Shown: positions 34,029 through 35,705 of the stretch, piece by piece
How positions within the stretch are numbered: position 1 is the stretch's first letter
Layout of the letters: the number at the start of each line of letters is the position of its first letter
IMG/VR virus record: IMGVR_UViG_2703718801_000025
Reading direction: 5' to 3' (one strand)
DNA length: 36,841 nt
Source: a virus
Taxonomy: Duplodnaviria > Heunggongvirae > Uroviricota > Caudoviricetes
Notes under the pieces: model-generated
What the model was told of the DNA's origin: nothing
Seen by the model: only the letters and a program-made list of their open reading frames with translations
Database searches by the model: none
Program-made: the position numbers and the translations under genes

Positions 34029-35705
34029 ATGAATTCATTTTCCATCGTTATATTCTTATTAGCATTTCTCGCCCCTGTTCTAGCTATAATATTATTTAAG
34101 CAAAGTAAAGAACACAAAGCCGCCATAGATAACCTGACGGCTAACAACATAGCCCTTTCCAGCCAACTGAGTGAAAATCAAGAAAAGTTAGCACAGACTG
34201 CACGAGATCTATCAGAGCTTGAAGGGCGAGCAGCACCATTATGGCAATACGAAGAATTGCACAGCGCAGTGATGGAGGCAGAGAATAAGATAAAAAATGC
34301 AGACTCAATAGCTAGGCAAAAAATAGAAGAAGCCCAAATAAAGGCAGCTAAGACAGTAAACGAAGCAAGTTATCAAGCTCAGATAACAATAAGCAACGCT
34401 AATAGCGAAGCTATAGCAATCACCAAAGACGCTCGCGATGCACGCCTGAAAGCCAAAGCACGTCTTGATAATGCCAACAGTAAAGCAAATGAGCTGATCT
34501 CAAATGCTAATGACAACGCAGTAAAAATTATTTCCGATGCAGAAGAAAGAGCAAAAGAGATTGCTGGTTCAGCATATGAAGCTAAAGAGTTTGCAGAAAA
34601 ATATGAAGCAGTTGCCAAATCAATGAAAAATAAAATTGAAGGTTATGGCGATGAATGGATCATCCCTAACCGTAGTGTACTTGATGAATTGGCAGAAAAT
34701 TATGAGTTTACAGATGCAGGCAAGGAATTACAAAAAGCCAGGGAGTTAACAAAATCATTAATAAAAACTAATAAAGCAGCTTCGTGTGATTATGTTGAGC
34801 AAAACAGGCGTAATACTGCTATCAACTTTGTTTTGGATGCCTTCAATGGAAGAGTTGACAGTATTTTATCAAAAGTCAAACACAACAATTTTGGAAAACT
34901 TTCCCAAGAAATAAAAGATGCATTTCAACTTGTAAATTATAATGGCTCTGCTTTTAGATCCGCAAAAATAAGTGACATCTATCTTCAGGCACGACTCAAC
35001 GAGCTAAAATGGGGAGTTGCAGTTAATGAAATTATGCTCGAAGAAAAAGAGGAGCAAAGAAGGATTAAAGAACAGCTTCGTGAAGAGGAAAGAGCTCGTA
35101 GAGAGTATGAAAAAGCGATAAAAGAAGCCGAAAAAGAAGAAAAAGCTATTCAGCAAGCTATAAATAAAGCAACGAAAGAGCTTATGCTTGCAAATGAAGA
35201 ACAACGCTTAGCTTTAGAGCAAAAAATAGCTGAACTACAGTTAAAATATGAAGAAGCTGAAGCTAAAAACCAACGAGCTATTTCTATGGCTCAACAAACT
35301 AGATCAGGCCATGTTTATATAATTAGCAATATTGGCTCATTTGGCGAAGATGTATATAAAATTGGAATGACACGCCGCCTTGAACCACTTGATCGTGTTC
35401 GTGAACTTGGGGATGCTAGTGTTCCTTTTTCGTTCGATGTTCATGCGATGATTTATAGTGATGATGCACCGTCATTAGAAAATCATCTGCATAAAGTCTT
35501 CAACGAAAAGCAGGTCAATAAAATTAACTCACGAAAAGAGTTTTTTAACGTAAATATTAAAGAAATTAAATCGGTTATTGAAGATATGAACATCAATGCC
35601 CACTGGACAATGTTTGCAGAGGCGAAAGAATATAGAGAGTCACTAGCTATTGAGCAGGAACGCAAAGCAGCCACTTCCGCCAACGATGAACTACATGTTG
35701 CTTAG
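34029..35705 (+). CDS. membrane-anchored coiled-coil protein with a C-terminal GIY-YIG-like (T5orf172-type) domain; cargo gene between cI and int
   Basis: 558-aa ORF: N-terminal transmembrane helix (FSIVIFLLAFLAPVLAIILF), about 400 aa of Ala/Lys/Glu-rich coiled coil with NAN-type repeats, and a C-terminal block GHVYIISNIGSFGEDVYKIGMTRRLEPLDRVRELGD; AT-rich; RBS aaaagga. Confidence 0.75.
   Translation: MNSFSIVIFLLAFLAPVLAIILFKQSKEHKAAIDNLTANNIALSSQLSENQEKLAQTARDLSELEGRAAPLWQYEELHSAVMEAENKIKNADSIARQKIEEAQIKAAKTVNEASYQAQITISNANSEAIAITKDARDARLKAKARLDNANSKANELISNANDNAVKIISDAEERAKEIAGSAYEAKEFAEKYEAVAKSMKNKIEGYGDEWIIPNRSVLDELAENYEFTDAGKELQKARELTKSLIKTNKAASCDYVEQNRRNTAINFVLDAFNGRVDSILSKVKHNNFGKLSQEIKDAFQLVNYNGSAFRSAKISDIYLQARLNELKWGVAVNEIMLEEKEEQRRIKEQLREEERARREYEKAIKEAEKEEKAIQQAINKATKELMLANEEQRLALEQKIAELQLKYEEAEAKNQRAISMAQQTRSGHVYIISNIGSFGEDVYKIGMTRRLEPLDRVRELGDASVPFSFDVHAMIYSDDAPSLENHLHKVFNEKQVNKINSRKEFFNVNIKEIKSVIEDMNINAHWTMFAEAKEYRESLAIEQERKAATSANDELHVA

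Follow-up and report, generated by a model that had tools for sequence, protein, structure and literature searches.

A SNIPE (PD-lambda-1) family gene between the repressor and integrase genes of a 186-like prophage

What does a prophage carry in the interval between its repressor and integrase genes, where phages P2 and 186 carry no gene? This question is raised by a 36,841-nucleotide stretch of viral DNA (IMG/VR record IMGVR_UViG_2703718801_000025, Caudoviricetes), here called the window, in which an intact open reading frame of 558 codons plus a stop codon lies at 34029..35705 (+), between a repressor (cI) frame and the integrase gene (int). A sequence-only reading had taken this gene for the single gene of a membrane-tethered, DNA-targeting defense system, and for the best candidate for an undescribed system in the window. 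Here, we report that the gene can be assigned, by profile and domain matches, to the SNIPE (PD-lambda-1) family, and we consider it highly probable that it encodes a SNIPE-family nuclease acting on DNA at entry, carried as cargo by a 186-like prophage and expressed together with cI.

Family assignment

The encoded protein matches the PADLOC profile PDLC03976 for PD-Lambda-1 with E = 7.3e-120, residues 115-550 aligning with profile positions 36-481 of 491, a match that spans 445 of the 491 positions (91%). The second PADLOC profile for PD-Lambda-1, PDLC03977, is matched with E = 4.2e-116, and PHROG 1847 with E = 4e-132. At a locus that is 100% identical to the window over positions 33300-36841, the product is recorded in RefSeq as WP_025649891.1, ‘SNIPE associated domain-containing protein’, and PGAP gives identical Escherichia coli loci either this name or ‘DUF4041 domain-containing protein’.

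PD-lambda-1 is a single-gene system, consisting of one protein, that was found and validated by Vassallo et al. 2022 (PMC9519451); the name SNIPE came with the elucidation of the mechanism (Saxton et al., Nature 2026, PMC13190303). The gene in the window thus belongs to an already described system, and the proposal that the system is undescribed is not supported. The remainder of that proposal, a phage defense gene whose product is tethered to the membrane and has a GIY-YIG/T5orf172 effector that cleaves DNA, agrees with what is known of the SNIPE family. As expected of a single-gene system, cI and int flank the gene in all three of E. coli, Klebsiella and Salmonella.

The 558-residue form of SNIPE is present in 166 of the 5426 complete E. 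coli genomes sampled, compared with 171 genomes that carry the matching type of cI and 1135 that carry the matching type of int. Proteins of the same length with 82-85% identity are found in Klebsiella, Citrobacter, Salmonella, Enterobacter and relatives, and clustering of the wider family at 50% identity leaves 1404 representatives at E <= 1e-30. An N-terminal hydrophobic stretch is present in 103 of the 118 closest full-length representatives. From these counts and the wide distribution, the architecture is the norm for the family, and the 558-residue subfamily is common.

Domain architecture and comparison with the characterized SNIPE

The reference SNIPE is the 500-residue protein RCP76574.1 of E. 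coli ECOR26 (Vassallo et al. 2022, PMC9519451; Saxton et al. 2026, PMC13190303). Its stand-in in our comparison was WP_074500416.1, a 500-residue DUF4041 protein from a lambdoid prophage of E. coli WP5-S17-ESBL-11, which holds all nine published residues in place (E223, N250, L253, W257, E264, K305, I308, T319 and E414) and is therefore usable as a reference-type sequence. The window protein is 50% identical to it over residues 265-552 (E = 2e-76), a region that covers the DUF4041 domain, the linker and the nuclease domain. The alignment pairs E484 with the catalytic E414 of the reference; this offset, +70, is also the distance by which the Pfam domains are displaced relative to the published PD-lambda-1 coordinates. 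The two proteins (558 and 500 residues) have in common a prophage-borne single gene, an N-terminal transmembrane helix followed by basic residues, a helical region, DUF4041, a linker, the GIY-YIG/T5orf172 domain with its catalytic glutamate, and a C-terminal helix; the rod is about 70 residues longer in the window protein.

The structure of the protein was modeled with AlphaFold2 from an alignment of 109 diverse homologues, with a mean predicted local distance difference test (pLDDT) score of 84.5; this alignment superseded one of 29 close homologues (82-97% identity), which gave a poor model (pLDDT 54, and below 50 in the globular domains). The model consists of a helix at residues 3-203, a globular helical part at approximately 204-315, a second helix at 316-422, an alpha/beta domain at 423-530 and a terminal helix at 533-557. 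At the N terminus, residues 4-23 form the sole strongly hydrophobic stretch, with a 19-residue Kyte-Doolittle mean of 2.99, the runner-up in the whole protein being 0.68. This single predicted transmembrane helix (FSIVIFLLAFLAPVLAIILF; codons 4-23, 34038..34097 (+)) is helical in the model and is followed by K24, K27 and K30, so that the positive-inside rule, together with the tested topology of the reference, predicts a single-pass anchor with the N terminus outside and the C terminus inside. Within the family, a transmembrane helix has been reported in 66% of SNIPE homologues and is thus typical, not strictly defining (PMC13190303).

The anchor is followed by an Ala/Glu/Lys/Asn-rich helical rod (codons 24-203, 34098..34637 (+)), modeled as helices 3-179 and 181-203 with pLDDT values of up to 95. 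This rod corresponds to the variable N-terminal region, the most variable one in the SNIPE family (PMC13190303), and has no significant similarity to the reference SNIPE; a weak match to DivIVA_Wag31 (E = 3e-5) was under the cutoff. Codons 204-315 (34638..34973 (+)) encode a globular helical DUF4041 domain, which was overlooked in the sequence-only reading and was recognized through Pfam PF13250 (residues 267-322, E = 3.1e-12), a family now labeled ‘SNIPE’, and through the model, where the domain has pLDDT values of 87-96 and the fold is modeled confidently for residues 216-315. In the alignment of homologues, this domain displays a conserved basic motif, K236, R238, K242 and K246, with the family consensus LKxARxxxKxxxK. 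A Glu/Lys/Arg-rich linker helix (codons 316-422, 34974..35294 (+); model helices 316-387 and 390-422) aligns with the linker of the reference and leads into the nuclease domain.

The GIY-YIG (T5orf172/MUG113) nuclease domain occupies codons 423-530 (35295..35618 (+)) and is delineated by Pfam matches (T5orf172, residues 427-520, E = 1.6e-17; MUG113, residues 443-520, E = 1.6e-19), by conservation and by a fold match. Its motifs are VY430I, Y443-K-I-G446, R449/R450, E484 (codon at 35478-35480) and N497/N500. Across 105-109 diverse homologues, Y430, G436, G439, T448 and F469 are invariant, and 90% or more share K444, G446, R449, R450, E484, N497 and N500; we take these conserved residues to represent the hallmark elements of GIY-YIG nucleases, namely GIY, YIG, Arg, Glu and Asn. 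In a Foldseek search of the PDB, the GIY-YIG nuclease Slx1 ranked first (probability 0.98, 3.2 Å over 74 columns), with E of only 0.06 because the query was a 558-residue rod. The nuclease-like C-terminal domain that had been proposed from the letters alone is in this way borne out by both the profile searches and the predicted alpha/beta fold.

The rest of the proposed architecture was only partly correct. The single predicted transmembrane helix holds up, as does the nuclease domain, whereas the approximately 400 residues of repetitive coiled coil resolve into a pair of long predicted helices, at about 24-203 and 316-422, that are separated by the DUF4041 globule of about 110 residues. The protein shows weak heptad periodicity (z = 1.5-2.0, with a dominant period of 3.65 residues), and the internal repeat score of 46 equals the best of 100 shuffles (the shuffled maxima averaged 32.9). 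With both signals marginal, a repetitive coiled coil is not established.

The long helices also bear on the idea that the gene encodes a structural or housekeeping coiled-coil protein, as implied by the product names ‘chromosome segregation ATPase’, given in two deposited phage genomes, and ‘V-type ATPase subunit H’, found in some records, JGI records among them. The helical parts of the protein do produce hits against SMC, DivIVA and ATP synthase b, but these are weak: SMC TIGR02169 reaches 15.5 bits where the cutoff is 729.4, and DivIVA 24 bits where it is 260. The sequence contains no G-x4-G-K-[ST] P-loop motif, and the strong matches are those to DUF4041, T5orf172 and PD-Lambda-1. We give this explanation next to no probability, and the SMC or ‘chromosome segregation ATPase’ identity in particular is ruled out by the profile scores and the missing P-loop. 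The searches thus did not lead to a structural or housekeeping family devoid of a nuclease-like domain, the outcome that would have spoken against the proposed nuclease.

The reference SNIPE, a nuclease bound to the membrane, cleaves the DNA of siphoviruses while their genomes are being injected; it is associated with ManYZ, through which lambda DNA crosses the inner membrane, and fragments injected 32P-labeled lambda DNA (PMC13190303). The DUF4041 domain of the reference, not the coil, binds DNA and crosslinks to the siphovirus tape measure protein, and the E414A mutation eliminates both defense and DNA cleavage (PMC13190303). Siphoviruses are targeted and myoviruses and podoviruses are spared, SNIPE cells survive the infection, and the DNA of an induced prophage is left untouched (PMC13190303).

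By homology with this characterized E. coli SNIPE, the window protein would reside in the membrane in an auto-inhibited state, its long helical rod leading to the basic DUF4041 domain, the linker helix and the GIY-YIG nuclease. Its recruitment to the siphovirus injection site would depend on DUF4041, which would contact both the tape measure protein and DNA, interactions that were demonstrated for the reference only, while the N-terminal region possibly also contacts a host inner-membrane protein. The entering DNA would then be cut, and the cell would be protected directly, without suicide. The anti-phage activity and the target range of the 558-residue variant are likewise expected by analogy with the reference.

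Protection without suicide contrasts with an abortive-infection toxin, in which infection would release or activate the nuclease against the host chromosome and the infected cell would be killed. The enzyme can in principle cut host DNA, given that the reference, when deprived of its membrane helix, attacks the nucleoid and is toxic (PMC13190303). The intact reference, however, provides direct defense, with cells surviving and growing at high multiplicity, unlike an abortive-infection control; the DNA that it degrades is injected phage DNA, and nothing in the 558-residue variant suggests a release mechanism. We regard an abortive-infection toxin as very unlikely.

Phage-encoded membrane proteins such as SieA of P22 and Imm of T4 halt superinfecting DNA at entry. 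They differ from SNIPE in having no nuclease domain, so that entry is blocked rather than DNA cleaved, and we detected no sequence relation between the window protein and these classical superinfection-exclusion proteins. Zorya and Kiwa resemble SNIPE as membrane-located defenses at the injection step (a comparison made in PMC13190303) but are multi-gene systems of unrelated proteins, thought to sense envelope perturbation and not to bind the tape measure protein. No Zor or Kwa components are among the PADLOC matches of the window protein, and its neighbors are cI and int. The PADLOC candidate PDC-S57 and other T5orf172 proteins have the T5orf172/GIY-YIG domain in common with the window protein (E = 3.7e-20, residues 424-546), but the match to PDC-S57 is confined to the nuclease domain, with no DUF4041 and no similarity over the remaining 420 residues.

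Several points weigh against the reading of the gene as a functional SNIPE. The fold match to Slx1, obtained with the whole elongated chain as the query, is statistically weak, and sequence and profile searches of the PDB gave no solved relative, merely spurious coiled-coil matches. The N-terminal 264 residues (195 in the reference) have no significant similarity to the reference-type protein, and because this is the region proposed to mediate the association with ManYZ, the membrane partner and the phage range may differ. Finally, the cI frame of this prophage carries a nonsense codon, and the annotation of phage 186 implies that loss of CI would lower expression from the promoter pL, which probably serves the gene. 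Family membership, domain order, conservation of the catalytic residues and a conserved cI-SNIPE-int module are nevertheless established.

Mutations in DUF4041 and the linker of the reference alter its specificity for the tape measure protein, W257R being a gain-of-function mutation (PMC13190303), and the window protein differs at such specificity positions, with S292 for E223, K327 for W257, Q375 for K305 and N389 for T319.

Placement, expression and cargo slot

The gene starts exactly 20 nucleotides after the end of the cI frame at 34008, and the spacer (TATAGTAAAAGGATTTAAAA) includes a Shine-Dalgarno-like AAGGA at 34017..34021 (+), read from the sequence, 7 nucleotides 5' of the ATG. On the other side, 83 nucleotides separate the SNIPE gene from int, a tyrosine integrase gene identified by its open reading frame and annotation (35789..36841 (+)). 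The G+C content of the SNIPE gene is 37.6%, compared with 49.7% for the window, in agreement with the description of an AT-rich 558-codon gene 20 base pairs after the repressor frame on the same strand; the AT-rich block starts already within the C-terminal half of cI (34.4% G+C).

The description of the gene as an addition, made by comparison with P2, holds as far as the slot is concerned: the interval between C and int of P2 is 115 base pairs long and gene-free, and in 186 cI abuts int with nothing between. The choice of P2 itself needs correction. By gene content, compared with the annotation of 186, the early region of the window (CI, Apl-like, CII and Fil) is of the 186 type, and the prophage is best classified as 186-like rather than P2 proper.

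An AT-rich gene with a T5orf172 domain, in a slot that holds no gene in either P2 or 186, could conceivably be a selfish GIY-YIG homing endonuclease inserted between cI and int with no role in defense, since T5orf172/GIY-YIG domains are known in phage homing endonucleases. Homing endonucleases of the I-TevI type, however, are soluble, free-standing or encoded in introns, and combine GIY-YIG with sequence-specific DNA-binding modules, in place of which the window protein has a membrane anchor, a 200-residue rod and DUF4041, some 400 residues of other architecture in all. Pfam gave just DUF4041, T5orf172 and MUG113, plus a TMF_DNA_bd match in the N-terminal helix that fell short of the threshold (15 bits, cutoff 35). 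The near one-to-one occurrence of cI and SNIPE and the AT-rich block that they share fit a co-inherited module rather than independent homing, and the experimentally tested family member is a defense protein. A homing endonuclease is, in our estimation, highly improbable.

The association of SNIPE with its neighbors is seen in the sequenced loci. The 3.5-kb segment from cI to int (33300-36841) matches several complete E. coli genomes with 100% identity; the same cI-SNIPE-int order is found in two deposited phage genomes, those of Klebsiella phage KP12 and Escherichia phage vB_EcoM-813R9, which are the two with the mis-annotated ‘chromosome segregation ATPase’. Klebsiella and Salmonella contigs have the same order, apl, cI (198 residues), SNIPE and int, with the same 20-nucleotide spacing.

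The gene had been predicted to be transcribed from the lysogenic promoter, which is plausible. A consensus scan and a looser scan revealed no credible sigma-70 promoter in or just 5' of the spacer, although both scans also missed pL itself and are therefore unable to settle how the gene is expressed. By analogy with 186, the apl-cI intergenic region (33317..33411, no strand assigned) is the expected site of the face-to-face promoters pR and pL; the consensus scan found no promoter in this region either. From the operon structure of 186, pL is the likely promoter for both cI and SNIPE, and since no credible promoter was found in or near the spacer, co-transcription with cI from pL would be the simplest reading; the identical spacing in Klebsiella and Salmonella is consistent with it.

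The transcription unit would probably end at a hairpin located before int. Identified by a terminator scan at 35764..35788 (+), the structure (AGCCCTC-TGATAT-GAGGGCT plus a T-run) has a 7-base-pair GC-rich stem (-15 kcal/mol, z = -3.4), and its T-run extends up to the int ATG. Its 3' arm includes the Shine-Dalgarno sequence of int, and related prophages retain a hairpin of different sequence, including one compensatory change from C:G to T:A. The hairpin is terminator-like and may terminate the cI-SNIPE transcript or mask the translation of int. It forms the end of a conserved block 5' of int (35727-35788) that begins with a promoter-like TTGACA-17-AAAAAT in relatives, here TTGATT...TAAATT; the block may represent a terminator or a translational control that insulates int from the transcript of cI and the cargo.

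What remains of cI in the window is a 186-type repressor frame at 33412..34008 (+), so that the repressor reported upstream of the gene is present as a frame but no longer intact. Codon 80, CAA in phage vB_EcoM-813R9, has become an ochre TAA (33649-33651), and PGAP flags a pseudogene in a strain that is 100% identical over 33300-36841. A 79-residue N-terminal fragment with the DNA-binding domain is left.

An alternative reading is that the gene, while homologous to SNIPE in sequence, is silent or of no consequence in the strain at hand: in a decaying prophage without functional CI, the lysogenic promoter would be poorly active and the gene would confer little or no protection. In the annotation of 186, pL is inhibited by the convergent pR, repressed by Apl and activated when CI represses pR; the ochre codon in cI is accompanied by an amber codon in the tape measure gene, and no independent promoter was found upstream of the SNIPE gene. 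Yet the SNIPE frame is intact with every conserved residue kept, the full-length window is 99.98% identical to strain OkiPb01680, and the N-terminal CI fragment with its DNA-binding domain could still be made. A Klebsiella prophage remnant, moreover, has lost its structural genes while retaining the immunity and SNIPE module, which suggests selection on the cargo. We consider a silent gene unlikely, and the expressed SNIPE nuclease remains the explanation that we favor. The Klebsiella remnant (GCA_052053135.1, 1-7770) consists of only ogr, DUF5347, fil, cII, apl, cI, SNIPE and int, beside a reverse transcriptase gene.

Other prophages with the same integrase carry different genes in the cI-int interval: a 63-residue open reading frame in strains H3 and UPEC-245U, a 323-residue hypothetical protein in CFT073, a 61-residue open reading frame with a KAP family P-loop NTPase (443 residues) in S21, and a 349-residue hypothetical protein in Klebsiella phage 4LV2017. 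Given this other cargo, the interval is a slot of variable content among prophages that have this integrase. Most of the other cargo genes in the slot are uncharacterized.

The window resembles P2-like prophages with their cargo genes old, tin and fun in that a variable slot of a Peduoviridae prophage holds a defense gene as a moron; for the hotspots of such prophages, work by Rousset and by Vassallo in 2022 is reportedly among the sources. The slot differs in being located within the lysogenic operon, not at the A-Q or Z/fun hotspot, and falls in the ‘integrase-primase’ interval. A survey of thousands of P2-like prophages found this interval to be a minor defense hotspot, with about 8% of the systems (NAR 2026, PMC13586616). 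The slot also distinguishes the gene from the reference-type copy examined here, which is in the nin region of a lambdoid prophage, whereas the window gene is between cI and int of a 186-like myovirus prophage.

A more specific scenario, which we put forward tentatively and hold at somewhat less than even odds, has two components. The longer, dissimilar N-terminal rod and the changed tuning residues in DUF4041 and the linker could mean that the 558-residue variant is aimed at an injection route or a set of phages other than those of the lambda/ManYZ reference. The tie between SNIPE and a particular 186-type cI, with the 20-nucleotide spacing kept across genera, could reflect a co-transcribed ‘immunity plus entry-nuclease’ module tied to lysogeny, with the hairpin insulating int.

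State of the prophage and implications

The tape measure gene (4744-7821, minus strand) has its amber codon near the 5' end, at 7648-7650, and an ‘internal stop’ is annotated at the corresponding gene of OkiPb01680. Since nonsense codons interrupt this gene as well as cI, the prophage is probably defective, which suggests a domesticated element with its cargo genes intact.

Other features of the window are recorded here for completeness. The classical A-Q hotspot of P2, between the replication endonuclease and portal genes, is occupied by a 500-residue open reading frame (25082-26584, minus strand) annotated as ‘retron Ec67 family RNA-directed DNA polymerase/endonuclease’; Rfam, at the gathering threshold, detected no RNA family at this locus. 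At the Z/fun position of P2, between the tail fiber assembly and tail sheath genes, there is an acyltransferase family gene (10388-11515, plus strand; 375 residues), which may be a surface-modifying lysogenic conversion gene. In comparison with OkiPb01680, the window lacks 96 nucleotides (32 codons, in frame) of a DUF2732 family gene at 31863-31873, bordered by an 11-nucleotide direct repeat. Between ybjL and the end of the prophage that carries ogr is the host small RNA gene RybB (2700-2778, plus strand; Rfam RF00110, 105 bits), and because of this location the attachment site may be at or next to rybB.

The defense reading of this gene was right and the claim of novelty wrong, so that the original observation is confirmed with corrections. 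The finding carries little weight as a discovery, SNIPE having already been named, validated and explained, and annotation pipelines label the locus. Its value for the catalogue is modest: about 3% of complete E. coli genomes carry this SNIPE variant in the immunity module of a 186-like prophage, and relatives in Klebsiella, Salmonella and Citrobacter likewise carry a variant with a 186-like immunity module. The N-terminal region of the variant is unlike that of the sole studied SNIPE member, and such variation has already been described for the family (PMC13190303).

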